This document shows positions 6,291-64,000 of a stretch of 64,000 nt of DNA, in pieces. The position numbers and the translations under genes are program-made. The DNA is from Eledone cirrhosa (Eukaryota): the NCBI GenBank assembly GCA_964016885.1, contig OZ024742.1:371628001-371692000 (forward strand). The letters are read 5' to 3'. Each line of letters begins with the position of its first letter. Position 1 is the stretch's first letter. The notes under the pieces are model-generated. The model was not told where the DNA came from. It made no database searches and saw only the letters and a program-made list of their open reading frames with translations.

Positions 6291-6341
6291 AGTGTATTAC
6301 TGGTACTTTATTTTATCGACCCCGTAACGATGAAAGGCAAA
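6291..6341 (-). mobile_element. SINE 3' fragment
   Basis: agtgtattactggtactttattttatcgaccccgtaacgatgaaaggcaaa, the same SINE tail. Confidence 0.7.
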
Positions 6342-7273: not shown

Positions 7274-7328
7274 TGTTAGAACACGAAAAGTGAACATTCT
7301 GTTGTTTCACACTTTTCGTGTTCTAACA
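7274..7328. repeat. 19-bp perfect hairpin at the island end
   Basis: tgttagaacacgaaaagtg (7274-7292) and cacttttcgtgttctaaca (7310-7328). Confidence 0.9.
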
Positions 7329-7457
7329 GATAAATACAATTAATTATTGCTAGGAACATATAAACATATATAATAAATACAATTAATTATTGCTAGGAAC
7401 AAATAAACATATATAATGAATACAATTAATTATTGCTAGGAACATATAAACATATAT

Positions 7458-12612: not shown

Positions 12613-13013
12613 CATCATCATCATCATCATCGTTTAACATCCGTGTTCCATGCTTGCATGGGTTTGGACGGGAGTTTTCCCACTTGAGGCAAGAGTGGTT
12701 GTCTTGCTCGCATAGGACTGTCTGGCGGGTTTTCTACAGTTGGATGCCCTTCCTAACACCAACCACATTTACAGTGTGGGGCTGGGAGGTTGTTACCGTG
12801 TTGCCTACACGGCCACATTACAGCGTGGACTGTCTGGTGGGTTTTCTACAGCTGGATGCCCTTCCTAACACCAACCACATTTACAGTGAGGGACTGGGAG
12901 GTTTTTACTGTGTTGCCTACACGGTCACATTACAGCGTGGACTGTGTGTATTTTTGTCGTGACACCTACACGATCTCATTTGTTTCGGCCTGGATTTTGT
13001 GGCACCAACATAA
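12613..13013 (-). mobile_element. 400-bp RTE 3'UTR-only fragment with internal 112-bp duplication
   Basis: (CAT)n tail plus a 3'UTR homologous to 114-405. Confidence 0.9.
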
Positions 13014-20614: not shown

Positions 20615-20664
<50 letters not shown>

Positions 20665-22082: not shown

Positions 22083-22209
22083 TAAATACAATTAATTATT
22101 GCTAGGAACATATAAACATATATAATAAATACAATTAATTATTGCTAGGAACAAATAAACATATATAATGAATACAATTAATTATTGCTAGGAACATATA
22201 AACATATAT

Positions 22210-27364: not shown

Positions 27365-27765
27365 CATCATCATCATCATCATCGTTTAACATCCGTGTTC
27401 CATGCTTGCATGGGTTTGGACGGGAGTTTTCCCACTTGAGGCAAGAGTGGTTGTCTTGCTCGCATAGGACTGTCTGGCGGGTTTTCTACAGTTGGATGCC
27501 CTTCCTAACACCAACCACATTTACAGTGTGGGGCTGGGAGGTTGTTACCGTGTTGCCTACACGGCCACATTACAGCGTGGACTGTCTGGTGGGTTTTCTA
27601 CAGCTGGATGCCCTTCCTAACACCAACCACATTTACAGTGAGGGACTGGGAGGTTTTTACTGTGTTGCCTACACGGTCACATTACAGCGTGGACTGTGTG
27701 TATTTTTGTCGTGACACCTACACGATCTCATTTGTTTCGGCCTGGATTTTGTGGCACCAACATAA
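27365..27765 (-). mobile_element. 400-bp RTE 3'UTR fragment (third copy)
   Basis: Same sequence and flanks as 12613-13013. Confidence 0.9.
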
Positions 27766-35493: not shown

Positions 35494-35789
35494 ATGTTGA
35501 TAATATGAATGAGGGTAATGCCAGATTTTAACAATGTCAGATCTGATGAAAATAAAAAGAATCAAGTAATTTTAACATTAAATAAAAAAAAAAAAAGAAG
35601 AAAGAATAGCTGGACAGATTTCATGGGCAAAACCAACCAGTAGGAGACCCAGGGGTAGAACCCAAGCCAGATAGCTGGATAACATCCATGAGCTTGGCTG
35701 GTCTCACTTGCAGATCCAGCTGGATCAGTTGGAGTCAGTTGCTTCTGACAGGACCTACTGGAAGGAGGGTTTCAGGAATCTCATTTCTA

Positions 35790-35918
35790 CACCTGAGTAA
35801 ACTGGAGTAATGTGAAATAAAGTGTCTTGCTGAAGGAAATAACACATCACCGAGAATTGAACTCACAACCTTTCGATTGCAAGCCCAATGCTCTAACCAC
35901 TAAGCCATGCGCCTTCAC
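35790..35918 (-). mobile_element. Second tRNA-derived SINE family (5' part)
   Basis: Minus strand shows A box TGGCTTAGTGG, B box GAGTTCAATTC, then a core-like CCTTCAGCAAGACACTTTA. Confidence 0.8.
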
Positions 35919-35984
35919 TGGATTGAATTGACTGGTGATATACCATAACACAAAAGATACTTCATATAATCTAATGATTTGTTA

Positions 35985-36007
35985 TGTTTTTCTATTTTGT
36001 TTTACAG
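35985..36007 (+). promoter_or_regulatory. U2-type 3' splice site (polypyrimidine tract + CAG)
   Basis: T-rich tract ending in ttttacag immediately before the DCP2-coding frame. Confidence 0.85.
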
Positions 36008-36159
36008 CCGTTTCATCATCAACATCCCACAAGAGGAACGACTTAATCCCATCCGTATCTTCTTCCAGATAGAACTAGCTCATTGGTTCTATTTAGATTT
36101 TTATTGTATAGAGAATCCAGATTTACATACGTGTGGAATCAAAGACTTCTCCTCTCAAA
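36008..36159 (+). CDS. DCP2: Internal coding exon of mRNA-decapping enzyme 2 (Dcp2 Box A domain)
   Basis: A pyrimidine-rich acceptor (ttttctattttgttttacag) precedes 1 nt + 50 codons + 1 nt reading (S)[50 protein letters not shown]. This matches the metazoan Dcp2 Box A as I recall it (human [33 protein letters not shown]...CGIRDF). The exon ends at the donor GTATCCTTT. Confidence 0.95.
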
Positions 36160-36169
36160 GTATCCTTTT
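36160..36169 (+). promoter_or_regulatory. U12-type (minor spliceosome) 5' splice site
   Basis: GTATCCTTTT directly after the DCP2 exon matches the RTATCCTTT U11-binding consensus, not the U2-type GTRAGT. Confidence 0.9.
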
Positions 36170-36208
36170 TAATTGATTGATTGAAATAGGTCATCTATTG
36201 CAGCTTTT

Positions 36209-36477
36209 ATCATCACCACCACCACCATCATCATCATCACCAACACCACCACAACCATCATCATCACCACCACCATCATCATCATCACTATCATCATCAC
36301 CACCAATATCACCACCACCACCATCGTCATCATCTCCACCACTACCACCATCATCACCATCACCACCACCACCACCACCACCGCACTACCATCACCACCA
36401 CCACCACTATCATCATCATCACCACCACTACCACCATCACCACCACCACTACCACCATCACCACCACCACCCCATCA
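36209..36477. repeat. (CAT/CAC)n compound microsatellite
   Basis: Directly visible. Confidence 0.95.
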
Positions 36478-36596
36478 CACTTTGTTCCACCTCCAAAGGT
36501 AATTTATTTGATTTTCTTAACTATTATTATTGTCATTTACATTGGGACAGCTACATTTCAAATTTTTTTCAAAGTTTCTTAAATCAATAAGATATA

Positions 36597-38050
36597 GTTA
36601 TGACAGTGTTATATTTAAACTAGACCCTCTCATAAGTGTTATGACAGTGTTATATTTAAATTAGACCCTCTCATAAGTGTTATGACTTATATTTAAACTG
36701 GACTCTCATAAGTGTTATGACAGTGTTATATTTAAACTAGACCCCCTCATAAGTGTTATGACAGTATTATATTTAAACTAGACCCTCTCATAAGTGTTAT
36801 GACTGTTATATTTAAACTAGACCCTCTCATAAGTGTTATGACAGTGTTATATTTAAACTGGACTCTCATAAGTGTTATGACGGTGTTATATTTAAACTGG
36901 ACTCTCATAAGTGTTATGACAGTGTTATATTTAAACTAGACTCTCTCATCTCTCTCTATATAAAACTGAGGATGTCTGTCTGTGTGTGTGTGTGAGTTTC
37001 AATCCCTAAAACTCGAGAACCACCCAACCGACTGTTTTCAAACTTTACACATGTAATACTTATGTCTCGGGAGTATTCTGAGCAAAAAAGATTTCAAATT
37101 TTCAATGCCCTAGGGACCGCATTAGGCGATTTAGCGATCTCTCTCTATAATTCTTTCTCTTTTTAGATAGATACATACATATAATGTTGCGCCCTTATAA
37201 TATCTGTCTGTATGTCTGGCTGTCTGCATTACGTCACTTCCCTGAGGATGTCTGTGTGTGTGTCTGTGAGTTTGAATCCTGAAAACTCGAGAAGTACCCA
37301 ACCGACTGTTTTCAAACTTTACATGTGTATTACTTATGTTTCAGGGAGTGTTATGCACATAAATAAATTCAATATTTTGATCTCCTACGGCCCGCATTAG
37401 GTGAAAAACTGCATTTTTAAAGCTTTTTAGGGCTTTTTGGAGGTGTTACGTCTAACCGATTTGCCCGAAATTTCAAAGCATATTATGCACATAAAAAAAT
37501 TCATTTTCATGATCCCTAGGGCCGGCATTAGGTGAAAACCTGCATTTTTCCTGCTTCATCGAGGAAAATCTTAAAGATTAACCAGCTACCAGAGTATTCG
37601 ATTTATTTTCTTTACATATTGTCCAGGCATGCAGTTTTTCCACGATTAGGTCTGTTGGCGGTCCGCGTTCCAAAATACCTTATCCCGTGCAACGCCGCGT
37701 ACCACTGCTAGTAAGTGTTATGACTGTTCCACAGTGTTTTGTTTAAACTAGACTCTCTCATAAGTGTTATGACAGTGTTATATGTAAACTAGAATCTCTC
37801 ATAAGTGTTATGGCAGTGTTATATTTAAACTAGACCCCCTCATAAGTGTTATGACAGTGTTATATTTAAACTACTCTCTCTCATAAGTGTTATAACAGTG
37901 CTATATTTAAACTAGAATCTCTCATAAGTGTTATAACAGTGTTATATTTGAACTAGACTCTCATAAGTGTTATGACAATGTTCCACAGTGTTATATTTAA
38001 ACTAGACTCTCTCATAAGTGTTATGACAGTGTTATATTTAAACTAGACTC
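36597..38050. repeat. 41-bp minisatellite (ATAAGTGTTATGACAGTGTTATATTTAAACTAGACCCTCTC), split by a Helitron
   Basis: Tandem units at 36597-36948 and 37712-38050. Confidence 0.93.
36949..37711 (+). mobile_element. Non-autonomous Helitron (763 bp)
   Basis: ctctctca|TCTCTCTCTATATAAAA ... cccgtgcaacgccgcg-taccactgCTAG|taagtg: 5' TC, 3' CTAG with a GC-rich subterminal hairpin-like motif, A|T target, no TSD. Internal ~160-bp duplication. Confidence 0.88.
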
Positions 38051-38237
38051 ATGTGTTTTAAGGCCATTTTCTTTGTTATAACGGGGGTTAGTTAGCCTTG
38101 CAGGCTTTCATGGTTCCCTTTTTAAGGCAATGTTTTGCAGCCAGATATTTTACCTGTTGCTGACCCATTAGTTCTTACAACATACAAGGGGATGGTGTAC
38201 CTCCTTTAAATAATAGTGTACCTATTCTAAACCAGAA

Positions 38238-41200
38238 ACAGTCTACCTACTGTAAATGATAGTCTACCTACTCTAAATGATAGTCTACCTACTCTAAATA
38301 ATACAGTCTACCTACTCTAAATGATAGCCTACCTACTCTAAATGATAGCCTACCTACTCTAAATAATAGTCTACCTACTCTAAATGATAGTCTACCTACA
38401 CTAAATAATACAGCCTACCTACGCTAAATGATAGCCTACCTGCTCTAAATGATAGTCTACCTACTCTAAATGATACAGCCTACCTACTCTAAATGATAGT
38501 CTACCTACTCTAAATGATAATCTACCTACTCTAAATGATAGTCTACCTGCTCTAAATAATAGTCTACCTACTCTAAATGATAGTCTACCTACTCTAAATG
38601 ATAGTCTACCTACTCTAAATGATACAGTCTACCTACTATAAATGATAGTCTACCTACTCTAAATAATAGTCTACCTACTCTAAATAATAGTCTACCTACT
38701 CTAAATAATAGTCTACCTACTCTAAATAATAGCCTACCTACTCTAAATGATAGTCTAACTACTCTAAATGATAGTCTACCTACTCTAAATGATAGTCTAC
38801 CTACTCTAAATAATAGTCTACCTACTCTAAATAATAGTCTACCTACTCTAAATAATAGTCTACCTACTCTAAATAATACAGCCTACCTACTCTAAATAAT
38901 ACAGTCTACCTATTCAAAATAATAGTCTACCTACTCTAAATGATAGTCTACCTTCTCTAAATAATAGTCTACCTACTTTAAATGAGAGTCTACCTACTCT
39001 AAATAATACGGCCTACCTACTCTAAATGGTAGTCTACCTACTCTAAATGATAGTCTACCTACTCTAAATGATAGTCTACCTACTCTAAATAATAGTCTAC
39101 CTACTCTAAATAATACAGTCTACCTACTCTAAATGATAGTCTACCTACTCTAAATAATACAGTCTACCTACTCCAAATGATACAGCCTACCTACTCTAAA
39201 TTATAGTCTACCTACTCTAAATAATAGTCTACCTACTCTAAATAATAGTGTACCTACTCTAAATGATACGGTCTACCTACTCTAAATGATACAGTCTACC
39301 TACTCTAAATAATAGTCTACCTACTCTAAATAATAGTCTACCTACTCTAAATAATAGTCTACCTACTCTAAATGATACGGTCTACCTACTCTTAATAATA
39401 CAGCCTACCTACTCTAAATGATACAGCCTACCTACTCTAAATAATAGTCTACCTACTCTAAATAATAGTCTACCTACTCTAAATGATACAGCCTACCTAC
39501 TCTAAATAATAGTCTACCTACTCTAAATAATAGTCTACCTACTCTAAATGATACAGTCTACCTACTCTAAATGATACAGCCTACCTACTCTAAATGATAG
39601 TCTACCTACTCTAAATGATAGTCTACTTTCTCTAAATGATAGCCTACCTACTCTAAATGATAGTCCACCTACTCTAAATGATACAGCCTACCTACTCTAA
39701 ATGATAGTCTACCTACTCTAAATGATAGTCTACCTACTCTAAATGATAGTCTACCTACTCTAAATGATAGTCTACCTACTCTAAATGATAGTCTACCTAC
39801 TCTAAATGATAGTCTACCTACTCTAAATAATAGTCTACCTACTCTAAATGATAGTGTACCTACTCTAAATGATACAGCCTACCTACTCTAAATGATAGTC
39901 TACCTACTCTAAATAATAGTCTACCTACTCTAAATGATAGTCTACCTACTCTAAATGATACAGTCTACCTACTCTAAATGATACAGTTTACCTACTCGAA
40001 ATGATAGTCTACCTACTCTAAATAATACAGTCTATCTACTCTAAATAATACAGTCTACCTACTCTAAATGATAGTCTATCTACTCTAAATAATAGTCTAC
40101 CTACTCTAAATGATAGCCTACCTACTCTAAATGATAGTCTACCTGCTCTAAATAATAGTCTACCTGCTCTAAATGATAGTCTACCTACTCTAAATGATAG
40201 TCTACCTACTCTAAATGATACAGCCTACCTACTCTAAATGATAGCCTACCTACTCTAAATAATACAGTCTACCTACTCTAAATAATAGTCTACCTACTCT
40301 AAATGATAGCCTACCTACTCTAAATAATACAGTCTACCTACTCTAAATAATAGTCTACCTACTCTAAATGATAGCCTACCTACTCTAAATAATACAGTCT
40401 ACCTACTCTAAATGATACAGCCTACCTACTCTAAATGATAGTCTACCTACTCTAAATGATACATCCTACCTACTCTAAATGATACAGCCTACCTACTCTA
40501 AATGATACAGCCTACCTACTCTAAATGATACAGTCTACCTACTCTAAATGATAGTCTACCTACTCTAAATGATACAGCCTACCTACTCTAAATGATAGTC
40601 TACCTACTCTAAATGATAGTCTACCTACTCTAAATGATAGTCTACCTACTCTAAATAATAGTCTACCTACTCTAAATGATACAGCCTACCTACTCTAAAT
40701 AATAGTCTACCTGCTCTAAATGATACAGTCTACTTACTCTAAATAATAGTCTACCTACTCTAAATGATACAGCTTACCTACTCTAAATAATAGTCTACCT
40801 ACTCTAAATAATAGTCTACCTACTCTAAATGATAGTCTAACTACTCTAAATAATAGTCTACCTACTCTAAATGATACAGCCTACCTACTCTAAATAATAG
40901 TCTACCTACTCTAAATAATAGTCTACCTACTCTAAATGATAGTCTAACTACTCTAAATAATAGTCTACCTACTCTAAATGATAGTCTACCTACTCTAAAT
41001 AATACAGCCTACCTACTCTAAATGATAGTCTACCTACTCTAAATGATAGTCTAACTACTCTAAATAATAGTCTACCTACTCTAAATGATACAGCCTACCT
41101 ACTCTAAATAATAGTCTACCTACTCTAAATAATAGTCTACCTACTCTAAATGATACAGTCTACCTACTCTAAATGATACAGTCTACCTACTCTAAATGAT

Positions 41201-44200
41201 AGTCTAACTACTCTAAATAATACAGTCTACCTACTCTAAATAACACAGTCTACCTACTCTAAATAATAGTCTAACTACTCTAAATAATAGTCTACCTACT
41301 CTAAATGATAGTCTAACTACTCTAAATAATAGTCTACCTACTCTAAATGATACAGCCTACCTACTCTAAATAATACAGTCTACCTATTCTAAATAATAGT
41401 CTACCTACTCTAAATAATACAGTCTACCTACTCTAAATGATAGTCTACCTACTCTAAATGATAGTCTAACTACTCTAAATAATACAGTCTACCTACTCTA
41501 AATGATAGTCTACCTACTCTAAATGATAGTCTAACTACTCTAAATAATACAGTCTACCTACTCTAAATAATAGTCTACCTACTCTAAATAATACAGCCTA
41601 CCTACTCTAAATAATAGTCTACCTACTCTAATTTATACAGTCTACCTACTCTAAATGATAGTCTACCTACTCTAAATGATACAGCCTACCTACTATAAAT
41701 AATACAGCCTACCTACTCTAAATAATAGTCTACCTACTCTAAATAATAAAGTCTACCTACTCTAAATAATAGTCTACCTACTCTAAATAATACAGTCTAC
41801 CTACTCTAAATGATAGTCTACCTACTCTAAATGATAGTCTACCTACTCTAAATGATAGTCTACCTACTCTAAATGATAGTCTACCTACTCTAAATAATAG
41901 TCTACCTACTCTAAATAATAGTCTACCTACTCTAAATAATAGTCTACCTACTCTAGATAATAGTCTACCTACTCTAAATAATAGCCTACCTACTCTAAAT
42001 GATACAGCCTACCTACTCTAAATAATAGTCTACCTGCTCTAAATGATACAGTCTACCTACTCTAAATAATAGTCTACCTACTCTAAATGATACAGCCTAC
42101 CTACTCTAAATAATAGTCTACCTACTCTAAATAATAGTCTACCTACTCTAAATGATAGTCTAACTACTCTAAATAATAGTCTACCTACTCTAAATGATAG
42201 TCTACCTACTCTAAATAATACAGCCTACCTACTCGAAATGATAGTCTACCTACTCTAAATGATAGTCTACCTACTCTAAATGATAGTCTACCTACTCTAA
42301 ATAATAGTCTACCTACTCTAAATGATACAGTCTACCTACTCTAAATGATAGTCTACCTACTCTAAATGATACAGTCTACCTACTCTAAATGATAGTCTAC
42401 CTACTCTAAATGATACAGTCTACCTACTCTAAATGATAGTCTACCTACTCTAAATGATAGTCTACCTACTCTAAATGATACAGTCTACCTACTCTAAATG
42501 ATAGTCTACCTACTCTAAATGATACAGTCTACCTACTCTAAATGATAGTCTACCTACTCTAAATGATACAGTCTACCTACTCTAAATGATAGTCTACCTA
42601 CTCTAAATGATAGTCTACCTACTCTAAATGATACAGTCTATCTACTCTAAATGATAGTCTACCTACTCTAAATGATACAGTCTACCTACTCTAAATGATA
42701 GTCTACCTACTCTAAATGATACAGTCTACCTACTCTAAATGATAGTCTACCTACTCTAAATAATAGTCTACCTACTCTAAATGATACAGCCTACCTACTC
42801 TAAATAATAGTCTACCTACTCTAAATAATAGTCTACCTACTCTAAATGATACAGTCTACCTACTCTAAATGATACAGCCTACCTACTCTAAATGATAGTC
42901 TACCTACTCTAAATGATAGTCTACTTTCTCTAAATGATAGCCTACCTACTCTAAATGATAGTCCACCTACTCTAAATGATACAGCCTACCTACTCTAAAT
43001 GATAGTCTACCTACTCTAAATGATAGTCTACCTACTCTAAATGATAGTCTACCTACTCTAAATGATAGTCTACCTACTCTAAATAATAGTCTACCTACTC
43101 TAAATGATAGTGTACCTACTCTAAATGATACAGCCTACCTACTCTAAATGATAGTCTACCTACTCTAAATAATAGTCTACCTACTCTAAATGATAGTCTA
43201 CCTACTCTAAATGATAGTCTACCTACTCTAAATGATAGTCTACCTACTCTAAATGATAGTCTACCTACTCTAAATAATAGTCTACCTACTCTAAATGATA
43301 GTGTACCTACTCTAAATGATACAGCCTACCTACTCTAAATGATAGTCTACCTACTGTAAATGATAGTCTACCTACTCTAAATGATAGTCTACCTACTCTA
43401 AATAATAGTCTACCTACTCTAAATAATAGTCTATCTACTCTAAATAATAGTCTACTTACTCTAAATAATAGTCTACCTACTCTAAATAATAGCCTACCTA
43501 CTCTAAATGATACAGCCTACCTACTCTAAATAATAGTCTACCTGCTCTAAATGATACAGTCTACTTACTCTAAATAATAGTCTACCTACTCTAAATGATA
43601 CAGCCTACCTACTCTAAATAATAGTCTACCTACTCTAAATAATAGTCTACCTACTCTAAATGATAGTCTAACTACTCTAAATAATAGTCTACCTACTCTA
43701 AATGATACAGCCTACCTACTCTAAATAATAGTCTACCTACTCTAAATAATAGTCTACCTACTCTAAATGATAGTCTAACTACTCTAAATAATAGTCTACC
43801 TACTCTAAATGATAGTCTACCTACTCTAAATAATACAGCCTACCTACTTTAAATGATAGTCTACCTACTCTAAATGATAGTCTAACTACTCTAAATAATA
43901 GTCTACCTACTCTAAATGATACAGCCTACCTACTCTAAATAATAGTCTACCTACTCTAAATAATAGTCTACCTACTCTAAATAATAGTCTACCTACTCTA
44001 AATAATAGTCTACCTACTCTAAATGATACAGTCTACCTACTCTAAATGATACAGCCTACCTACTCTAAATAATACAGTCTACCTACTCTAAATAATAGTC
44101 TACCTACTCTAAATAATAGTCTACCTACTCTAAATGATAGTCTAACTACTCTAAATAATAGTCTACCTACTCTAAATGATACAGCCTACCTACTCTAAAT

Positions 44201-47200
44201 AATACAGTCTACCTATTCTAAATAATAGTCTACCTACTCTAAATAATACAGTCTACCTACTCTAAATGATAGTCTACCTACTCTAAATGATAGTCTAACT
44301 ACTCTAAATAATACAGTCTACCTACTCTAAATGATAGTCTACCTACTCTAAATGATAGTCTAACTACTCTAAATAATACAGTCTACCTACTCTAAATAAT
44401 AGTCTACCTACTCTAAATAATACAGCCTACCTACTCTAAATAATAGTCTACCTACTCTAATTAATACAGTCTACCTACTCTAAATGATAGTCTACCTACT
44501 CTAAATGATAGTCTAACTACTCTAAATAATACAGTCTACCTACTCTAAATAATAGTCTACCTACTCTAAATAATACAGCCTACCTACTCTAAATAATAGT
44601 CTACCTACTCTAATTAATACAGCCTACCTACTATAAATAATACAGCCTACCTACTCTAAATAATAGTCTACCTACTCTAAATAATAAAGTCTACCTACTC
44701 TAAATGATACAGCCTACCTACTCTAAATAATACAGTCTACCTACTCTAAATAATAGTCTACCTACTCTAAATAATAGTCTACCTACTCTAAATGATAGTC
44801 TAACTACTCTAAATAATAGTCTACCTACTCTAAATGATACAGCCTACCTACTCTAAATAATACAGTCTACCTATTCTAAATAATAGTCTACCTACTCTAA
44901 ATAATACAGTCTACCTACTCTAAATGATAGTCTACCTACTCTAAATGATAGTCTAACTACTCTAAATAATACAGTCTACCTACTCTAAATGATAGTCTAC
45001 CTACTCTAAATGATAGTCTAACTACTCTAAATAATACAGTCTACCTACTCTAAATAATAGTCTACCTACTCTAAATAATACAGCCTACCTACTCTAAATA
45101 ATAGTCTACCTACTCTAATTAATACAGTCTACCTACTTTAAATGATAGTCTACCTACTCTAAATGATACAGCCTACCTACTGTAAATAATACAGCCTACC
45201 TACTCTAAATAATAGTCTACCTACTCTAAATGATAGTCTACCTACTCTAAATAATAGTCTACCTACTCTAAATAATACAGTCTACCTACTCTAAATGATA
45301 GTCTACCTACTCTAAATGATAGTCTACCTACTCTAAATGATAGTCTACCTACTCTAAATAATAGTCTACCTACTCTAAATAATAGTCTACCTACTCTAAA
45401 TAATAGTCTACCTACTCTAAATAATAGTCTACCTACTCTAAATAATAGCCTACCTACTCTAAATGATAGTCTACCTACTCTAAATAATAGTCTACCTACT
45501 CTAAATGATACAGCCTACCTACTCTAAATAATAGTCTACCTGCTCTAAATGATACAGTCTACCTACTCTAAATAATAGTCTACCTACTCTAAATGATACA
45601 GCCTACCTACTCTAAATAATAGTCTACCTACTCTAAATAATAGTCTACCTACTCTAAATGATAGTCTAACTACTCTAAATAATAGTCTACCTACTCTAAA
45701 TGATACAGCCTACCTACTCTAAATAATAGTCTACCTACTCTAAATAATAGTCTACCTACTCTAAATGATAGTCTAACTACTCTAAATAATAGTCTACCTA
45801 CTCTAAATGATACAGCCTACCTACTCGAAATGATAGTCTACCTACTCTAAATGATAGTCTACCTACTCTAAATGATAGTCTACCTACTCTAAATAATAGT
45901 CTACCTACTCTAAATGATACAGTCTACCTACTCTAAATGATAGTCTACCTACTCTAAATGATACAGTCTACCTACTCTAAATGATAGTCTACCTACTCTA
46001 AATGATACAGTCTACCTACACTAAATGATAGTCTACCTACTCTAAATGATAGTCTACCTACTGTAAATGATACAGTCTACCTACTCTAAATGATAGTCTA
46101 CCTACTCTAAATGATACAGTCTACCTACTCTAAATGATAGTCTACCTACTCTAAATGATAGTCTTCCTACTCTAAATGATACAGTCTACCTACTCTAAAT
46201 GATAGTCTACCTACTCTAAATGATACAGTCTACCTACTCTAAATAATAGTCTACCTACTCTAAATGATACAGTCTACCTACTCTAAATGATACAGCCTAC
46301 CTACTCTAAATGATAGTCTACCTACTCTAAATGATACAGTCTACCTACTCTAAATGATACAGTCTACCTACTCTAAATGATACAGTCTACCTACTCTAAA
46401 TGATACAGTCTACCTACTCTAAATGATAGTCTACCTACTCTAAATGATACAGCCTACCTACTCTAAATGATAATCTAACTACTCTAAATAATAGTCTACC
46501 TACTCTAAATGATACAGCCTACCTACTCTAAATAATAGTCTACCTACTCTAAATAATAGTCTACCTACTCTAAATGAAAGTCTAACTACTCTAAATAATA
46601 GTCTACCTACTCTAAATGATAGTCTACCTACTCTAAATAATACAGCCTACCTACTCTAAATGATAGTCTACCTACTCTAAATAATAGTCTACCTACTCTA
46701 AATAATAGTCTACCTACTCTAAATGATACAGTCTACCTACTCTAAATGATACAGCCTACCTACTCTAAATAATACAGTCTACCTACTCTAAATAATAGTC
46801 TACCTACTCTAAATGATAGTCTAACTACTCTAAATAATAGTCTACCTACTCTAAATGATACAGCCTACCTACTCTAAATAATACAGCCTACCTACTCTAA
46901 ATAATACAGTCTACCTATTCTAAATAATAGTCTACCTACTCTAAATAATACAGTCTACCTACTCTAAATGATAGTCTACCTACTCTAAATGACAGTCTAA
47001 CTACTCTAAATAATACAGTCTACCTACTCTAAATGATAGTCTACCTACTCTAAATGATAGTCTAACTACTCTAAATAATACAGTCTACCTACTCTAAATA
47101 ATAGTCTACCTACTCTAAATAATACAGCCTACCTACTCTAAATAATAGTCTACCTACTCTAATTAATACAGTCTACCTACTCTAAATGATAGTCTACCTA

Positions 47201-50200
47201 CTCTAAATGATACAGCCTACCTACTATAAATAATACAGCCTACCTACTCTAAATAATAGTCTACCTACTCTAAATAATAGTCTACCTACTCTAAATAATA
47301 CAGTCTACCTACTCTAAATGATAGTCTACCTACTCTAAATGATAGTCTACCTACTCTAAATGATAGTCTACCTACTCTAAATGATAGTCTACCTACTCTA
47401 AATAATAGTCTACCTACTCTAAATAATAGTCTACCTACTCTAAATAATAGTCTACCTACTCTAAATAATAGTCTACCTACTCTAAATAATAGCCTACCTA
47501 CTCTAAATGATACAGCCTACCTACTCTAAATAATAGTCTACCTACTCTAAATGATAGTCTACCTACTCTAAATGATAGTCTACCTACTCTAAATGATACA
47601 GCCTACCTACTCTAAATGATAGTCTACCTACTCTAAATGATAGTCTACCTACTCTAAATAATAGTCTACCTACTCTAAATGATACAGTCTACCTACTCTA
47701 AATGATAGTCTACCTACTCTAAATGATACAGTCTACCTACTCTAAATGATAGTCTACCTACTCTAAATGATACAGTCTACCTACTCTAAATGATAGTCTA
47801 CCTACTCTAAATGATAGTCTACCTACTCTAAATGATACAGTCTACCTACTCTAAATGATAGTCTACCTACTCTAAATGATACAGTCTACCTACTCTAAAT
47901 GATAGTCTACCTACTCTAAATGATAGTCTACCTACTCTAAATGATACAGTCTACCTACTCTAAATGATAGTCTACCTACTCTAAATGATAGTCTACCTAC
48001 TCTAAATGATACAGTCTACCTAGTCTAAATGATAGTCTACCTACTCTAAATGATACAGTCTACCTACTCTAAATGATAGTCTACCTACTCTAAATGATAC
48101 AGTCTACCTACTCTAAATGATAGTCTACCTTCTCTAAATGATAGTCTACCTACTCTAAATGATACAGTCTACCTACTCTAAATGATAGTCTACGTACTCT
48201 AAATGATACAGTCTACCTACTCAAAACGATACAGCCTACCTACTCTAAATGATAGTCTACCTACTCTAAATGATACAGTCTACCTACTCTAAATGATAGC
48301 CTACCTACTCTAAATGATAGTCTACCTACTCTAAATAATAGTCTACCTACTCTAAATAATAGTCTACCTACTCTAAATAATAGTCTACCTACTCTAAATG
48401 ATACAGTCTACCTACTCTAAATGATACAGCCTACCTACTCTAAATGATAGTCTACCTACTCTAAATGATACAGTTTACCTACTCTAAATGATACAGTCTA
48501 CCTACTCTAAATGATAGTCTACCTACTCTAAATGATACAGCCTACCTACTCTAAATGATACAGTCTACCTACTCTAAATGATAGTCTACCTTCTCTAAAT
48601 GATACAGTCTACCTACTCTAAATGATAGCCTACCTACTCTAAATAATACAGTCTACCTACTCTAAATGATACAGTCTACCTACTCTAAATGATACAGCCT
48701 ACCTACTCTAAATGATAGTCTACCTACTCTAAATGATACACTCTACCTACTCTAAATGATACAGTCTACCTACTCTAAATGATAGTCTACCTACTCTAAA
48801 TGATACAGCCTACCTACTTTAAATGATACAGTCTACCTACTCTAAATGATAGTCTACCTACTCTAAATGATACAGTCTACCTACTCTAAATGATAGCCTA
48901 CCTACTCTAAATAATACAGTCTACCTACTCTAAATGATACAGTCTACCTACTCTAAATCATAGTCTACCTACTCTAAATGATACAGTCTACCTACTCTAA
49001 ATGATACAGTCTACCTACTCTAAATGATAGTCTACCTACTCTAAATGATACAGTCTACCTACTCTAAATGATAGTCTACCTACTCTAAATGATACAGCCT
49101 ACCTACTCTAAATGATACAGTCTACCTACTCTAAATGATAGTCTACCTACTCTAAATAATACAGACTACCTACTCTAAATAATAGTCTACCTACTCTAAA
49201 TGATAGTCTACCTACTCTAAATGATAGACTGTATTATTTAGAGTAGGTAGACTATCATTTAGAGTAGGTAGACTATCATTTAGAGTAGGTAGACTATTAT
49301 TTAGAGCAGGTAGGCTGTATCATTTAGAGTAGGTAGACTGTATCATTTAGAGTAGGTAGACTATCATTTAGAGTAGGTAGACTGTATCATTTAGAGTAGG
49401 TAGACTGTATTATTTAGAGTAGGTAGGCTATCATTTAGAGTAGGTAGACTGTATCATTTAGAGTAGGTAGACTGTATCATTTAGAGTAGGTAGACTATCT
49501 ACTCTAAATGATAGTCTACCTACTCTAAATAATAGTCTACCTACTCTAAATAATAGTCTACCTACTCTAAATGATAGTCTACCTACTGTAAATAATACAG
49601 CCTACCTACTCTAAATGATAGTCTACCTACTGTAAATAATACAGACTACCTACTCTAAATAATAGTCTACCTACTCTAAATGATACAGCCTACCTACTCT
49701 AAATGATAGTCTACCTACTCTAAATAATAGCCTACCTACTCTAAATGATAGTCTACCTACTCTAAATGATAGTCTACCTACTCTAAATGATAGTCTACCT
49801 ACTCTAAATGATAGTCTACCTGCACTAAATGATAGTCTACCTGCACTAAATAATACAGCCTACCTACGCTAAATGATAGCCTACCTGCTCTAAATGATAG
49901 TCTACCTACTCTAAATGATACAGCCTACCTACTCTAAATGATAGTCTACCTACTCTAAATGATTGTCTACCTACTGTAAATGATAGTCTACCTGCTCTAA
50001 ATAATAGTCTACCTACTCTAAATAATAGTCTACCTACTCTAAATGATACAGTCTACCTACTCTAAATGATAGTCTACCTACTCTAAATAATAGTCTACCT
50101 ACTCTAAATAATAGTCTACCTTCTCTAAATAATAGTCTACCTACTCTAAATAATAGCCTACCTACTCTAAATGATACAGCCTACCTACTCTAAATGATAG

Positions 50201-53200: not shown

Positions 53201-56200
53201 GTCTACCTACTCTAAATAATAGTCTACCTACTCTAAATAATAGTATACCTACTCTAAATAATACAGCCTACCTACTCTAAATAATACAGTCTACCTACTC
53301 TAAATAATAGTCTACCTACTCTAAATAATAGCCTACCTACTCTAAATGATACAGCCTACCTACTCTAAATAATAGTCTACCTGCTCTAAATGATACAGTC
53401 TACCTACTCTAATTAATAGTCAACCTACTCTAAATGATACAGCCTACCTACTCTAAATAATAGTCTACCTACTCTAAATAATAGTCTACCTACTCTAAAT
53501 GATAGTCTAACTACTCTAAATAATAGTGTACCTACTCTAAATGATACAGCCTACCTACTCTAAATAATACAGCCTACCTACTCTAAATAATACAGTCTAC
53601 CTATTCTAAATAATAGTCTACCTACTCTAAATAATACAGTCTACCTACTCTAAATGATAGTCTAACTACTCTAAATAATACAGTCTACCTACTCTAAATG
53701 ATAGTCTAACTACTCTAAACAATACAGTCTACTTACTCTAAATAATAGTCTACCTACTCTAAATAATACAGCCTACCTACTCTAAATAATACAGCCTACC
53801 TACTCTAAATAGTAGTCTACCTACTCTAAATGATAGTCTACCTACTCTAAATGATACAGCCTACCTACTCTAAATAATACAGCCTACCTACTCTAAATAA
53901 TAGTCTACCTACTCTAAATAATAAAGTCTACCTACTCTAAATAATAGTCTACCTACTCTAAATAATACAGTCTACCTACTCTAAATGATAGTCTACCTAC
54001 TCTAAATGATACAGTCTACCTACTCTAAATGATAGTCTACCTACTCTAAATAATACAGTCTACATACTCTAAATAATAGTCTACCTACTCTAAATAATAG
54101 TCTACCTACTCTAAATAATAGTCTACCTACTCTAAATGATACAGCCTACCTACTCAAAATATTAGTCTACCTACTCTAAATAATACAATCTACCTACTGT
54201 AAATGATAGTCTACCTACTCTAAATGATAGTCTACCTACTCTAAATAATAGTCTACCTACTCTAAATGATACAGTCTACCTACTCTAAATGATAGTCTAC
54301 CTACTCTAAATGATACAGTCTACCTACTCTAAATGATACAGTCTACCTACTCTAAATGATACAGTCTACCTACTCTAAATGATAGTCTACCTACTCTAAA
54401 TGATAGTCTACCTACTCTAAATGATACAGTCTACCTACTCTAAATGATAGTCTACCTACTCTAAATGATAGAGTCTACCTACTCTAAATGATAGTCTACC
54501 TACTCTAAATGATACAGTCTACCTACTCTAAATGATATAGTCTACCTACTCTAAATGATAGTCTACCTACTCTAAATGATAGTCTACCTACTCTAAATGA
54601 TACAGTCTACCTACTCTAAATGATAGTCTACCTACTCTAAATGATAGTCTACCTACTCTAAATGATACAGTCTACCTACTCTAAATGATAGTCTACGTAC
54701 TCTAAATGATACAGTCTACCTACTCTAAATGATAGCCTACCTACTCTAAATCATAGTCTACCTACTCTAAATAATAGTCTACCTACTCTAAATAATAGTC
54801 TACCTATCTAAATGATACAGTCTACCTACTCTAAATGATAGTCTACCTACTCTAAATGATACAGTCTACCTACTCTAAATGATACTGTCTACCTACTCTA
54901 AATGATAGTCTACCTACTCTAAATGATACAGCCTACCTACTCTAAATGATACAGTCTACCTACTCTAAATGATAGTCTACCTTCTCTAAATGATACAGTC
55001 TACCTACTCTAAATGATAGCCTACCTACTCTAAATAATATAGTCTACCTACTCTAAATGATACAGTCTACCTACTCTAAATGATAGTCTACCTACTCTAA
55101 ATGATACAGTCTACCTACTCTAAATGATACAGTCTACCTACTCTAAATGATAGTCTACCTACTCTAAATGATAGTCTACCTACTCTAAATGATAGTCTAC
55201 CTACTCTAAATGATAGTCTACCTACTCTAAATGATACAGTCTACCTACTCTAAATGATAGTCTACCTACTCTAAATGATACAGCCTACCTACTCTAAATG
55301 ATACAGTCTACCTACTCTAAATGATAGTCTACCTACTCTAAATGATAGTCTACCTACTCTATATAATAGTCTACCTACTCTAAATGATAGTCTACCTACA
55401 CTAAATAATACAGCCTACCTACGCTAAATGATAGCCTACCTGCTCTAAATGATAGTCTACCTACTCTAAATGATACAGCCTACCTACTCTAAATGATAGT
55501 CTACCTACTCTAAATGATAGTCTACCTACTCTAAATGATAGTCTACCTACTCTAAATGATAGTCTACCTACTCTAAATGATACAGTCTACCTACTCTAAA
55601 TGATAGTCTACCTACTCTAAATAATAGTCTACCTACTCTAAATAATAGTCTACCTACTCTAAATAATAGTCTACCTACTCTAAATAATAGCCTACCTACT
55701 CTAAATGATACAGTCTACCTACTCTAAATGATAGCCTACCTACTCTAAATGATAGCCTACCTACTCTAAATGATAGTCTAACTACTATAATTGATAGTCT
55801 ACCGACTCTAAATGATAGTCTACCTACTCTAAATAATACAGTGTACCTACTCTAAATGATAGTCTACCTACTCTAAATAATAGTCTACCTACTCTAAATA
55901 ATAGTCTACCTACTCTAAATAATAGTCTACCTACTCTAAATAATACAGCCTACCTACTCTAAATAATACAGTCTACCTACTCTAAATAATAGTCTACCTG
56001 CTCTAAATGATACAGTCTACCTACTCTAAATAATAGTCTACCTACTCTAAATAATAGTCTACCTACTCTAAATAATAGTCTACCTACTCTAAATAATAGC
56101 CTACCTACTCTAAATGATACAGCCTACCTACTCTAAATAATAGTCTACCTGCTCTAAATGATACAGTCTACCTACTCTAAATGATACAGCCTACCTACTC

Positions 56201-59200
56201 TAAATAATAGTCTACCTACTCTAAATAATAGTCTACCTACTCTAAATGATAGTCTAACTACTCTAAATAATAGTCTACCTACTCTAAATGATACAGCCTA
56301 CCTACTCTAAATAATAGTCTACCTACTCTAAATAATAGTCTACCTACTCTAAATGATAGTCTAACTACTCTAAATAATAGTCTACCTACTCTAAATGATA
56401 GTCTACCTACTCTAAATAATACAGCCTACCTACTCTAAATGATAGTCTACCTACTCTAAATGATAGTCTAACTACTCTAAATAATAGTCTACCTACTCTA
56501 AATGATACAGCCTACCTACTCTAAATAATAGTCTACCTACTCTAAATAATAGTCTACCTACTCTATATGATACAGTCTACCTACTCTAAATGATACAGCC
56601 TACCTACTCTAAATAATACAGTCTACCTACTCTAAATAATAGTCTACCTACTCTAAATGATAGTCTAACTACTCTAAATAATAGTCTACCTACTCTAAAT
56701 GATACACCCTATCTACTCTAAATAATACAGCCTACCTACTCTAAATAATACAGTCTACCTATTCTAAATAATAGTCTACCTACTCTAAATAATACAGTCT
56801 ACCTACTCTAAATGATAGTCTACCTACTCTAAATGATAGTCTAACTACTCTAAATAATACAGTCTACCTACTCTAAATGATAGTCTACCTACTCTAAATG
56901 ATAGTCTAACTACTCTAAATAATACAGTCTACCTACTCTAAATAATAGTCTACCTACTCTAAATGATAGTCTACCTACTCTAAATGATACAGCCTACCTA
57001 CTCTAAATAATACAGCCTACCTACTCTAAATAATAGTCTACCTACTCTAAATAATAAAGTCTACCTACTCTAAATAATAGTCTACCTACTCTAAATAATA
57101 CAGTCTACCTACTCTAAATGATAGTCTACATACTCTAAATAATAGTCTACCTACTCTAAATAATAGTCTACCTACTCTAAATAATAGTCTACCTACTCTA
57201 AATGATAGTCTACCTACTCTAAATGATACAGCCTACCTACTCTAAATGATACAGTCTACCTACTCTAAATGATACAGTCTACCTACTCTAAATGATAGTC
57301 TACCTACTCTAAATGATAGTCTACCTACTCTATATAATAGTCTACCTACTCTAAATGATAGTCTACCTACACTAAATAATACAGCCTACCTACGCTAAAT
57401 GGTAGCCTACCTGCTCTAAATGATAGTCTACCTACTCTAAATGATACAGCCTACCTACTCTAAATGATAGTCTACCTACTCTAAATGATAGTCTACCTAC
57501 TCTAAATGATAGTCTACCTACTCTAAATGATAGTCTACCTACTCTAAATGATACAGTCTACCTACTCTAAATGATAGTCTACCTACTCTAAATAATAGTC
57601 TACCTACTCTAAATAATAGTCTACCTACTCTAAATAATAGTCTACCTACTCTAAATAATAGCCTACCTACTCTAAATGATACAGCCTACCTACTCTAAAT
57701 GATAGCCTACCTACTCTAAATGATAGTCTAACTACTATAATTGATAGTCTACCGACTCTAAATGATAGTCTACCTACTCTAAATGATACAGTCTACCTAC
57801 TCTAAATGATACAGTCTACCTACTCTAAATGATAGTCTACCTACTCTAAATGATAGTCTACCTACTCTAAATGATACAGTCTACCTACTCTAAATGATAG
57901 TCTACCTACTCTAAATGATACAGCCTACCTACTCTAAATGATACAGTCTACCTACTCTAAATGATAGTCTACCTACTCTAAATGATAGTCTACCTACTCT
58001 AAATGATAGTCTACCTACTCTATATAATAGTCTACCTACTCTAAATGATAGTCTACCTACACTAAATAATACAGCCTACCTACGCTAAATGATAGCCTAC
58101 CTGCTCTAAATGATAGTCTACCTACTCTAAATGATACAGCCTACCTACTCTAAATGATAGTCTACCTACTCTAAATGATAGTCTACCTACTCTAAATGAT
58201 ACAGTCTACCTACTCTAAATGATAGTCTACCTACTCTAAATAATAGTCTACCTACTCTAAATAATAGTCTACCTACTCTAAATAATAGTCTACCTACTCT
58301 AAATAATAGCCTACCTACTCTAAATGATACAGCCTACCTACTCTAAATGATAGCCTACCTACTCTAAATGATAGTCTAACTACTATAATTGATAGTCTAC
58401 CGACTCTAAATGATAGTCTACCTACTCTAAATAATACAGTGTACCTACTCTAAATGATAGTCTACCTACTCTAAATAATAGTCTACCTACTCTAAATAAT
58501 AGTCTACCTACTCTAAATAATAGTCTACCTACTCTAAATAATACAGCCTACCTACTCTAAATAATACAGTCTACCTACTCTAAATAATAGTCTACCTACT
58601 CTAAATAATAGCCTACCTACTCTAAATGATACAGCCTACCTACTCTAAATAATAGTCTACCTGCTCTAAATGATACAGTCTACCTACTCTAAATGATACA
58701 GCCTACCTACTCTAAATAATAGTCTACCTACTCTAAATAATAGTCTACCTACTCTAAATGATAGTCTAACTACTCTAAATAATAGTCTACCTACTCTAAA
58801 TGATACAGCCTACCTACTCTAAATAATAGTCTACCTACTCTAAATAATAGTCTACCTACTCTAAATAATAGTCTACCTACTCTAAATGATAGTCTAACTA
58901 CTCTAAATAATAGTCTACCTACTCTAAATGATAGTCTACCTACTCTAAATAATACAGCCTACCTACTCTAAATGATAGTCTACCTACTCTAAATGATAGT
59001 CTAACTACTCTAAATAATAGTCTACCTACTCTAAATGATACAGCCTACCTACTCTAAATAATAGTCTACCTACTCTAAATAATAGTCTACCTACTCTATA
59101 TGATACAGTCTACCTACTCTAAATGATACAGCCTACCTACTCTAAATAATAGTCTACCTACTCTAAATAATAGTCTACCTACTCTAAATAATAGTCTACC

Positions 59201-62200
59201 TACTCTAAATGATAGTCTAACTACTCTAAATAATAGTCTACCTACTCTAAATGATAGTCTACCTACTCTAAATAATACAGCCTACCTACTCTAAATGATA
59301 GTCTACCTACTCTAAATGATAGTCTACCTACTCTAAATAATAGTCTACCTACTCTAAATGATACAGTCTACCTACTCTAAATGATAGTCTACCTACTCTA
59401 AATGATACAGTCTACCTACTCTAAATGATAGTCTACCTACTCTAAATGATACAGTCTACCTACTCTAAATGATAGTCTACCTACTCTAAATGATAGTCTA
59501 CCTACTCTAAATGATACAGTCTACCTACTCTAAATGATAGTCTACCTACTCTAAATGATACAGTCTACCTACTCTAAATGATAGTCTACCTACTCTAAAT
59601 GATAGTCTACCTACTCTAAATGATACAGTCTACCTACTCTAAATGATAGTCTACCTACTCTAAATGATAGTCTACCTACTCTAAATGATACAGTCTACCT
59701 AGTCTAAATGATAGTCTACCTACTCTAAATGATACAGTCTACCTACTCTAAATGATAGTCTACCTACTCTAAATGATACAGTCTACCTACTCTAAATGAT
59801 AGTCTACCTTCTCTAAATGATAGTCTACCTACTCTAAATGATACAGTCTACCTACTCTAAATGATAGTCTACGTACTCTAAATGATACAGTCTACCTACT
59901 CAAAACGATACAGCCTACCTACTCTAAATGATAGTCTACCTACTCTAAATGATACAGTCTACCTACTCTAAATGATAGCCTACCTACTCTAAATGATAGT
60001 CTACCTACTCTAAATAATAGTCTACCTACTCTAAATAATAGTCTACCTACTCTAAATAATAGTCTACCTACTCTAAATGATACAGTCTACCTACTCTAAA
60101 TGATACAGCCTACCTACTCTAAATGATAGTCTACCTACTCTAAATGATACAGTTTACCTACTCTAAATGATACAGTCTACCTACTCTAAATGATAGTCTA
60201 CCTACTCTAAATGATACAGCCTACCTACTCTAAATGATACAGTCTACCTACTCTAAATGATAGTCTACCTTCTCTAAATGATACAGTCTACCTACTCTAA
60301 ATGATAGCCTACCTACTCTAAATAATACAGTCTACCTACTCTAAATGATACAGTCTACCTACTCTAAATGATACAGCCTACCTACTCTAAATGATAGTCT
60401 ACCTACTCTAAATGATACACTCTACCTACTCTAAATGATACAGTCTACCTACTCTAAATGATAGTCTACCTACTCTAAATGATACAGCCTACCTACTTTA
60501 AATGATACAGTCTACCTACTCTAAATGATAGTCTACCTACTCTAAATGATACAGTCTACCTACTCTAAATGATAGCCTACCTACTCTAAATAATACAGTC
60601 TACCTACTCTAAATGATACAGTCTACCTACTCTAAATCATAGTCTACCTACTCTAAATGATACAGTCTACCTACTCTAAATGATACAGTCTACCTACTCT
60701 AAATGATAGTCTACCTACTCTAAATGATACAGTCTACCTACTCTAAATGATAGTCTACCTACTCTAAATGATACAGCCTACCTACTCTAAATGATACAGT
60801 CTACCTACTCTAAATGATAGTCTACCTACTCTAAATAATACAGACTACCTACTCTAAATAATAGTCTACCTACTCTAAATGATAGTCTACCTACTCTAAA
60901 TGATAGTCTACCTACTCTAAATAATACAGTCTATCTACTCTAAATGATAGTCTACCTACTCTAAATAATAGTCTACCTACTCTAAATAATAGTCTACCTA
61001 CTCTAAATGATAGTCTACCTACTGTAAATAATACAGCCTACCTACTCTAAATGATAGTCTACCTACTGTAAATAATACAGACTACCTACTCTAAATAATA
61101 GTCTACCTACTCTAAATGATACAGCCTACCTACTCTAAATGATAGTCTACCTACTCTAAATAATAGCCTACCTACTCTAAATGATAGTCTACCTACTCTA
61201 AATGATAGTCTACCTACTCTAAATGATAGTCTACCTACTCTAAATGATAGTCTACCTGCACTAAATGATAGTCTACCTGCACTAAATAATACAGCCTACC
61301 TACGCTAAATGATAGCCTACCTGCTCTAAATGATAGTCTACCTACTCTAAATGATACAGCCTACCTACTCTAAATGATAGTCTACCTACTCTAAATGATT
61401 GTCTACCTACTGTAAATGATAGTCTACCTGCTCTAAATAATAGTCTACCTACTCTAAATAATAGTCTACCTACTCTAAATGATACAGTCTACCTACTCTA
61501 AATGATAGTCTACCTACTCTAAATAATAGTCTACCTACTCTAAATAATAGTCTACCTTCTCTAAATAATAGTCTACCTACTCTAAATAATAGCCTACCTA
61601 CTCTAAATGATACAGCCTACCTACTCTAAATGATAGCCTACCTACTCTAAATGATAGTCTACCTACTCTAAATGATAGTCTACCTACTCTAAATAATAGT
61701 CTACCTACTCTAAATAATAGTCTACCTACTCTAAATAATAGTATACCTACTCTAAATAATACAGCCTACCTACTCTAAATAATACAGTCTACCTACTCTA
61801 AATAATAGTCTACCTACTCTAAATAATAGCCTACCTACTCTAAATGATACAGCCTACCTACTCTAAATAATAGTCTACCTGCTCTAAATGATACAGTCTA
61901 CCTACTCTAATTAATAGTCAACCTACTCTAAATGATACAGCCTACCTACTCTAAATAATAGTCTACCTACTCTAAATAATAGTCTACCTACTCTAAATGA
62001 TAGTCTAACTACTCTAAATAATAGTGTACCTACTCTAAATGATACAGCCTACCTACTCTAAATAATACAGCCTACCTACTCTAAATAATACAGTCTACCT
62101 ATTCTAAATAATAGTCTACCTACTCTAAATAATACAGTCTACCTACTCTAAATGATAGTCTAACTACTCTAAATAATACAGTCTACCTACTCTAAATGAT

Positions 62201-64000
62201 AGTCTAACTACTCTAAACAATACAGTCTACTTACTCTAAATAATAGTCTACCTACTCTAAATAATACAGCCTACCTACTCTAAATAATACAGCCTACCTA
62301 CTCTAAATAGTAGTCTACCTACTCTAAATGATAGTCTACCTACTCTAAATGATACAGCCTACCTACTCTAAATAATACAGCCTACCTACTCTAAATAATA
62401 GTCTACCTACTCTAAATAATAAAGTCTACCTACTCTAAATAATAGTCTACCTACTCTAAATAATACAGTCTACCTACTCTAAATGATAGTCTACATACTC
62501 TAAATAATAGTCTACCTACTCTAAATAATAGTCTACCTACTCTAAATAATAGTCTACCTACTCTAAATGATACAGCCTACCTACTCAAAATATTAGTCTA
62601 CCTACTCTAAATAATACAATCTACCTACTGTAAATGATAGTCTACCTACTCTAAATGATAGTCTACCTACTCTAAATAATAGTCTACCTACTCTAAATGA
62701 TACAGTCTACCTACTCTAAATGATAGTCTACCTACTCTAAATGATACAGTCTACCTACTCTAAATGATACAGTCTACCTACTCTAAATGATACAGTCTAC
62801 CTACTCTAAATGATAGTCTACCTACTCTAAATGATAGTCTACCTACTCTAAATGATACAGTCTACCTACTCTAAATGATAGTCTACCTACTCTAAATGAT
62901 AGAGTCTACCTACTCTAAATGATAGTCTACCTACTCTAAATGATACAGTCTACCTACTCTAAATGATATAGTCTACCTACTCTAAATGATAGTCTACCTA
63001 CTCTAAATGATAGTCTACCTACTCTAAATGATACAGTCTACCTACTCTAAATGATAGTCTACCTACTCTAAATGATAGTCTACCTACTCTAAATGATACA
63101 GTCTACCTACTCTAAATGATAGTCTACGTACTCTAAATGATACAGTCTACCTACTCTAAATGATAGCCTACCTACTCTAAATCATAGTCTACCTACTCTA
63201 AATAATAGTCTACCTACTCTAAATAATAGTCTACCTATCTAAATGATACAGTCTACCTACTCTAAATGATAGTCTACCTACTCTAAATGATACAGTCTAC
63301 CTACTCTAAATGATACTGTCTACCTACTCTAAATGATAGTCTACCTACTCTAAATGATACAGCCTACCTACTCTAAATGATACAGTCTACCTACTCTAAA
63401 TGATAGTCTACCTACTCTAAATGATAGTCTACCTACTCTAAATGATACAGTCTACCTACTCTAAATGATAGCCTACCTACTCTAAATAATACAGTCTACC
63501 TACTCTAAATGATACAGTCTACCTACTCTAAATCATAGTCTACCTACTCTAAATGATACAGTCTACCTACTCTAAATGATACAGTCTACCTACTCTAAAT
63601 GATAGTCTACCTACTCTAAATGATACAGTCTACCTACTCTAAATGATAGTCTACCTACTCTAAATGATACAGCCTACCTACTCTAAATGATACAGTCTAC
63701 CTACTCTAAATGATAGTCTACCTACTCTAAATAATACAGACTACCTACTCTAAATAATAGTCTACCTACTCTAAATGATAGTCTACCTACTCTAAATGAT
63801 AGTCTACCTACTCTAAATAATACAGTCTATCTACTCTAAATGATAGTCTACCTACTCTAAATAATAGTCTACCTACTCTAAATAATAGTCTACCTACTCT
63901 AAATGATAGTCTACCTACTGTAAATAATACAGCCTACCTACTCTAAATGATAGTCTACCTACTGTAAATAATACAGACTACCTACTCTAAATAATAGTCT
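38238..64000. repeat. 21/23-bp satellite array, >=25.7 kb: (AC)AG[T/C]CTACCTACTCTAAAT[G/A]AT
   Basis: Continuous tandem array to the window end; no ORFs. Confidence 0.98.
49228..49494 (-). other. Inverted block (~12 monomers) within the 21/23-bp satellite
   Basis: Reads tttagagtaggtagact, the reverse complement of the monomer. Confidence 0.95.

Follow-up and report, generated by a model that had tools for sequence, protein, structure and literature searches.

A predicted U12-type intron of octopod DCP2 reaches 128 kb and consists almost entirely of one locus-private satellite

The window analysed here is a stretch of 64,000 nucleotides from the octopod Eledone cirrhosa (C3:371,628,001-371,692,000, where C3 is contig OZ024742.1 of the 3.0-Gb assembly GCA_964016885.1), located ~7 Mb from the end of the 378.9-Mb scaffold C3. 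It contains, on the plus strand, part of DCP2, the gene of a general decay enzyme: the 3' part of the U2-type intron 1 (positions 1-36007; GTTTGT...TTTTACAG), exon 2 (36008-36159) and the beginning of intron 2. Positions beyond the window are given as extended positions, that is, the C3 position minus 371,628,000. Exon 2 is preceded by the acceptor TTTTACAG, ending in CAG, and its 152 nt encode Box A of Dcp2 (RFIINIP...KDFSSQ plus the first base of an Ile codon). The translation matches Pfam family PF05026 (E 1.4e-18, 67.3 bits vs a cut-off of 28), and over its 50 residues the identity is 100% with DCP2 of Octopus vulgaris and 96% with that of Argonauta. A first-pass annotation of the window had described a Dcp2 Box A exon ending at a U12-type donor, in line with this match and with the sequence GTATCCTTTT found at 36160.

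The O. vulgaris DCP2 protein, an orthologue that matches fungal Dcp2 and human DCP2 structures, yields eight colinear matches when searched against the genome, and a script search added an exon of 25 nt. This search, which the first-pass annotation had proposed for locating the flanking exons, results in a model of nine exons and 421 aa, spanning 417,749 bp with 0 internal stops and with all exons in order and orientation. Exon 1 lies ~92.6 kb upstream of the window, exon 3 occupies C3:371,792,283-410 on the plus strand (beginning at extended position 164,283), and exons 4-9 of the gene model continue on the same strand through C3:371,953,091; the 464 kb fetched around the gene contain zero N. 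The model is 88.7% identical to O. vulgaris DCP2, and the Nudix box GX5EX7REUXEEXGU is intact in its frame (GKINEDETEQECAVREVFEETG). A whole-genome search matched exon 2 once only. An orphan duplicate of an intact DCP2 elsewhere, or a pseudogene, is ruled out by the single exon-2 match, the nine colinear exons and the open frame; the window exon belongs to a single-copy, intact octopod DCP2.

The U12-type 5' splice site GTATCCTTTT (36160-36169, plus strand; GT-AG subtype, phase 1) is the sole RTATCCTT on the plus strand of the window. Chance alone would give ~1.2 RTATCCTTT per 64 kb, so the motif by itself is not significant; the donor is significant because it is placed exactly at the exon end (p ~2e-5 per site). 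TCCTTRAY is absent from both strands of the 64-kb window, and the observation of the first-pass annotation that neither a next DCP2 exon nor a U12 branch site follows in the window is explained by their position further downstream. The putative branch site TCCTTGAC is located at C3:371,792,264-271 on the plus strand (extended 164,264-164,271), with the branch A at -13 followed by a CAG acceptor; no second TCCTTRAY occurs in the window or in the 200 kb that follow it. Its distance of 13 nt from the acceptor has a chance of ~8e-4 in a 10-nt slot, and the 3' end of the intron, TTAATCCTTGACCTGTGTGTCAG, is without a long pyrimidine tract. Intron 2 thus measures 128,123 bp and splits an Ile codon after its first base (A|TA, phase 1), an Ile also found in the O. 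vulgaris protein, with exon 3 joined in frame.

The genome also carries the small nuclear RNA (snRNA) genes required to read these signals, namely a U12 gene (128 bits) and two U11 copies (94-96 bits). The 5' end of U11 from the same genome pairs with donor positions +4 to +10 (7 bp), and the GUAAGGA of U12 pairs with TCCTTGAC with one G-U pair and a bulged A. By donor, branch site and snRNA-gene criteria, intron 2 is predicted to be a real U12-type (minor) intron. In run X4, contig 32 (1,519 nt) matches 36005-36159 perfectly, its match ending at the donor, and the adjoining intron has zero depth. The part of the contig beyond the donor comes to 1,186 nt, a length equal to 1,028 coding nt plus a 158-nt untranslated region, and ends inside an AT-repeat tract. 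The contigs of runs X1-X3 continue from exon 2 into the intron. The X4 contig looks as a spliced mRNA would, its shape suggesting that it derives from RNA. Read mapping over the window is dominated by a high-copy repeat resembling a short interspersed nuclear element (SINE) at ~35.6-35.9 kb.

Intron 2 begins with a 5' shoulder of ~2.0 kb (36170-38197, plus strand), composed of a CAC microsatellite (36214-36471), two 41-bp arrays (36597-36949 and 37731-38050) and other sequence. From 38198 the remainder of the window is filled by a 21/23-bp satellite (CTACCTACTCTAAATRATA[CA]GY, plus strand), which continues to C3:371,791,963. Within the window it has a period of 21 and 1,188 copies with 87% matches; the ~26 kb of 21/23-bp satellite reported previously is therefore present, although it is not perfectly pure, having an inverted patch at ~49.2-49.5 kb. 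The whole array (extended 38,198-163,963) reaches 125.8 kb with ~5,800 units and makes up 98% of intron 2, of which 98.9% is tandem repeat according to Tandem Repeats Finder. Only shoulders of 2,038 bp (5') and 319 bp (3') around the splice signals are free of the array. The earlier proposal of a conserved minor intron expanded by satellite growth agrees well with this organization.

For a 40-base word of the array, the genome-wide count of 1,095+2 matches is the same as the count within this locus. As all 1,097 matches fall here, the satellite is private on this measure, and the 21-bp unit has no match in the sampled genomic background. A dispersed or centromeric satellite family is ruled out for the 40-base word tested, diverged copies elsewhere being possible. 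A coding role of the satellite is likewise ruled out, as the longest stop-free run is 111 aa on either strand.

The array is dominated by a few 21- and 23-bp unit variants, its composition drifts along its length, and nested duplications occur at ~2.9, 5.6 and 11.4 kb. Long homogeneous arrays are error-prone, the length is taken from the assembly alone, and an exact 3.9-kb internal repeat occurs at an offset of 5,584 bp, all of which could point to an assembly artefact, the array being much shorter in the animal or exons 2 and 3 having been joined over a mis-scaffolded repeat. However, the gene contains zero N and its nine exons are in order and orientation, the drifting unit composition and the absence of any exact repeat reaching 4 kb argue against such an artefact, and degenerate units sharing AAACCARAAACA at both array edges fit growth in place. 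We consider an artefact highly unlikely.

The inverted patch (49220-49500, minus-strand orientation) is predicted to pair with the adjacent satellite sequence, forming a hairpin of ~200 bp, and three shorter inverted patches lie past the window at extended 121.2, 124.9 and 130.5 kb, giving four in all. Speculatively, the ~200-bp double-stranded stem predicted for the first patch in the pre-mRNA may be an ADAR substrate in this editing-rich lineage.

The transcribed (sense) strand of the satellite contains 0 RTATCC, 0 CCTTRAY, 0 GTRAG and 25 AATAAA. Donor-like sites occur at 0.01 per kb on this strand vs 1.07 per kb on the opposite strand, which carries 5,217 GTAGGT. Across the 11 arrays of DCP2, the sense strand is clearly donor-poorer in two and richer in one, the rest having few or none on either strand; with one array, the strand asymmetry is suggestive only. 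These counts also bear on how the intron is removed. A TAG or CAG is present in each unit, and CTRAY occurs 125 times on the sense strand of the array, so that intron 2 might be real and yet be excised stepwise, by recursive or nested U2 splicing at array AGs. Against this, ratchet points (AG|GT) are nearly absent because the sense strand has 0 GTRAG and 1 CAGGT, and no 10-nt pyrimidine tract stands ahead of an AG. Moreover, U12 donors would not normally be joined to U2 acceptors. The same alternative may instead involve dedicated RNA-binding helpers, as the giant satellite introns of fly Y-loop genes need co-transcriptional splicing together with Blanks and Heph (PMC11207136; PMC6508621). Taken together, removal by steps or with such helpers appears unlikely.

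Intron 2 is one of several giant introns in this gene. The U2-type intron 1 measures 128,579 bp and is 75% tandem repeat, chiefly a 43-bp satellite, and the U2-type intron 6 measures 109,838 bp and is 99% tandem repeat with a 70-bp unit. Further arrays are found in introns 3 (47-bp unit), 5 (28-bp), 7 (26/45/33-bp) and 8 (30-bp), so that tandem repeat accounts for 87% of all DCP2 intron bases. Two U2 introns are thus as large as intron 2 with other satellites; the expansion is not specific to the minor intron, and the idea that this intron is special is not supported.

The neighbouring gene on the same strand, mTOR (C3:371,308,000-371,440,000), ends ~96 kb upstream of DCP2. It is identified by the Pfam FAT, kinase and FATC domains and by mTOR as the best PDB match in 4 of 5 exon searches, the fifth being without a match. 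Its introns hold arrays of 22 kb (42/126-bp units), 55.7 kb (41-bp) and 9.7 kb (27-bp), the 22-kb array being located between exons that meet at human residue 1667.

The swelling extends to the scaffold ends, which we assume to be chromosome ends. When 10-kb samples were scored for more than half cover by arrays with units >=10 bp, 13/20 samples from the last 19 Mb of C3 were array-rich, as against none of the 20 from 10-352 Mb (means 0.62 and 0.05; P=4e-5). The five other ends of C1-C3 gave 21/40, bringing the total for the terminal 15-20 Mb to 34/60 vs 0/20 along the C3 arm; such arrays are thus abundant at each of the six ends of the three largest scaffolds, with nearly all units different. 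The matched exons of two interior genes of the Alg6/8 family extend over ~15 and 24 kb. Past a 200-N gap, a 25-bp unit is repeated over at least 110 kb (C3:372.06-372.17 Mb), and a near-identical 23-bp unit fills samples 500 kb apart at C3:372.5 and 373.0 Mb, possibly as one very long array. Frog subtelomeres are similar, having ~20-Mb gene-bearing terminal domains rich in arrays of >10-bp units, some of them SINE-derived, and the frog arrays are attributed to unequal crossing-over (Bredeson et al. 2024, PMC10794172). The main text of the frog paper makes no mention of introns, whereas in the octopod such arrays reach 50-126 kb within individual introns and differ in unit from one intron to the next. 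An open-access literature search returned no description of terminal satellites in cephalopods, and word searches of the main texts of Albertin 2022 and of the O. vulgaris genome paper revealed no such terminal-array description, their supplements lying outside the search.

These data also address the suggestion of the first-pass annotation that array length could tune decapping-enzyme output, as a selected or polymorphic regulatory dial acting through slower U12 splicing or transcript delay. Intron 2 being U12-type is compatible with such a tuner; with transcription at 2-3 kb/min, intron 2 would take ~45-65 min, so that its 128 kb add roughly an hour. Furthermore, a role of intron size in developmental timing has been suggested for Drosophila Y genes (PMC6508621). 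Nevertheless, the same expansion is seen in the U2 introns 1 and 6, in mTOR and at the scaffold ends, and intron 2 contributes only 31% of the total DCP2 intron length (128.1/416.5 kb). A simple model in which longer minor introns are more rate-limiting runs opposite to the trend in mouse, in which shorter, not longer, minor introns are more retained (PMC6717393). A length tuner is therefore improbable.

As for its ancestry, the human DCP2 minor intron is presumably intron 2, at the same codon as the octopod intron. Human and mouse DCP2 are both listed as minor-intron genes of AT-AC subtype, with introns of 6,134 bp and 3,599 bp, in supplements 1 and 8 of Olthof et al. 2019 (PMC6717393). The human and mouse introns share with the octopod an RTATCCTTT donor and a TCCTTRAC branch site (human ACTTCCTTGACA), and their donor context, CTG|ATATCC, is compatible with phase 1 at the end of the Box A exon, as in the octopod. 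The expectation that the vertebrate DCP2 intron is also U12-type is thus supported in kind and position; its subtype and size differ, being AT-AC and 6,134 bp (human) or 3,599 bp (mouse) vs GT-AG and 128,123 bp in the octopod. We also read 16 related proteins at this position as a protein-level footprint of intron sequence. Eight of them break off at this exon end. In six of these eight the sequence goes on with [N/D/S]-I-L, as RTATCCTT would be translated (five AT-type and one GT-type), and the other two look U2-like. Because the human and mouse introns are minor and the [N/D/S]-I-L footprints recur, the U12 intron of DCP2 is old and has since switched subtype.

Four other U12-like introns measured in this genome, from two genes, have approximate lengths of 0.6-1.4 kb, and the median intron of O. 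vulgaris is 2,467 bp (PMC10700109). Intron 2 is ~100-fold longer than the other minor introns seen, yet normal for its chromosomal address, because the U2 introns, mTOR and the scaffold ends are equally swollen. At the ALG6/8 and CDC45 loci, no usable combination of donor and branch site was obtained. Among the human table rows seen, the largest minor introns are those of DIAPH2 (100,276 bp), SLC9A9 (94,503 bp) and EIF4G3 (86,961 bp). In these genes the minor spliceosome already spans ~100 kb, in the same size range as the octopod intron, which is longer than any of those rows and is 98% one tandem repeat. Its size is thus at or just above the known minor-intron range as given by these rows. 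In comparisons between species, the length of minor introns follows that of major introns and the size of the genome (PMC10639083; PMC7367187). In an open-access literature search we found no description of a minor intron that is 98% one satellite, and in PMC4066798 DCP2 appears only as a knock-down target. The ingredients themselves, namely a DCP2 minor intron, satellite mega-introns and satellite-rich chromosome ends, are already known.

The first-pass annotation had likened the locus to the satellite mega-introns of Drosophila Y fertility genes. The likeness holds for the anatomy: introns of kl-3 and kl-5 are nearly all satellite and must be transcribed and spliced out, and intron 2 is 98.9% tandem repeat (PMC6508621, PMC11207136). 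It does not hold for the biology. The fly introns are megabase-scale, Y-linked and spermatocyte-specific with simple repeats such as AATAT (PMC6508621, PMC11207136), and belong to testis-specific genes with simple pentamer satellites. In the octopod, the introns are ~0.1 Mb (128 kb for intron 2, with its 21/23-bp unit rather than a simple repeat), the private units are complex (21-70 bp), the genes (DCP2, mTOR) are housekeeping genes, and one intron is U12-type.

Several further features were observed around these genes. The 26-bp unit in intron 7 (C3:371,915,308-371,917,560) matches a dispersed high-copy SINE-like repeat that is also present at window 35600-35920 before exon 2, and the 70-bp unit of intron 6 looks tRNA/SINE-like, with one weak match in the sampled background. 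Intron 1 contains a tandem duplication of 14.4 kb with 97% identity (window 1105-15429 and 15847-30152). Each copy holds an intact minus-strand open reading frame (ORF) of 1,040 aa (7755-10877 and 22509-25631) with an endonuclease, a reverse transcriptase and an embedded PHD finger, consistent with a young long interspersed nuclear element (LINE); similar ORFs were found at three other loci, one of them between mTOR and DCP2. A trypsin-family exon is also located between the two genes. The sense strand of intron 1 carries 2,220 AATAAA vs 53 on the antisense strand, the 43-bp unit itself containing a sense AATAAA, and premature polyadenylation in this intron must somehow be avoided.

We put at roughly 70% the probability that intron 2 is a conserved U12-type intron grown to 128 kb by one locus-private satellite, and that this growth is a tolerated by-product of satellites expanding throughout the gene-bearing ends of chromosomes, not a regulatory device. 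The by-product part of this reading follows from the U2 introns 1 and 6, mTOR and the scaffold ends being swollen alike. In the proposed course of events, a short local sequence in a terminal domain with frequent recombination would have been duplicated, and slippage together with unequal crossing-over would then have amplified it and left the nested duplications of ~2.9, 5.6 and 11.4 kb. The array would have spared the 2.0-kb 5' and 0.3-kb 3' shoulders, leaving the U11/U12 sites and the flanking exons intact. Joining the exons over this 128-kb distance would then fall to the minor spliceosome, with exon definition involving the neighbouring U2 sites as the probable mode of recognition. With a transcribed strand devoid of U12 donor and branch decoys and almost devoid of U2 donor-like sites, the cost would be mainly transcription time, and the satellite may have been tolerated since the signals stayed intact and no decoys were added.

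Several points weigh against this interpretation. The predicted array length comes from one assembly, none of the contigs mapped to the window bears on the array edge at 38.2 kb, and the terminal domain is presumed to be recombination-rich. The junction of exons 2 and 3 is a predicted one, the X4 contig being taken as RNA from its shape. Intron 2 is exceptional among the minor introns seen here (others 0.6-1.4 kb), and no other minor intron was found in a terminal domain among the KAP, DER1, Alg6/8 and CDC45 families. Finally, neutrality is presumed, and the 2,220 sense AATAAA of intron 1 would be a cost needing suppression.

A broader possibility, which we regard as tentative and rather doubtful, is that in terminal domains of 15-20 Mb, essential single-copy genes such as DCP2 and mTOR would be routinely transcribed through private arrays of 50-130 kb, as a somatic, housekeeping counterpart of the fly Y loops. 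This would need a dedicated long-gene programme, in which thousands of intronic poly(A) signals are suppressed and U12 splicing operates across near-pure satellite, and hypervariable array length could lead to heritable, allele-specific delay.

Intron 2 represents a natural extreme for minor splicing, in which two short signals would be joined across 128 kb without U12 decoys. It offers a system for testing intron vs exon definition of U12 introns and the effect of length on minor-intron retention. Short-read assemblies would collapse arrays of this kind, which would also disrupt gene models and be too long for the intron limits of aligners; the arrays are candidate hypervariable markers. The long private satellites in housekeeping-gene introns at octopod scaffold ends may be a larger finding, and may matter more, than the DCP2 intron itself.

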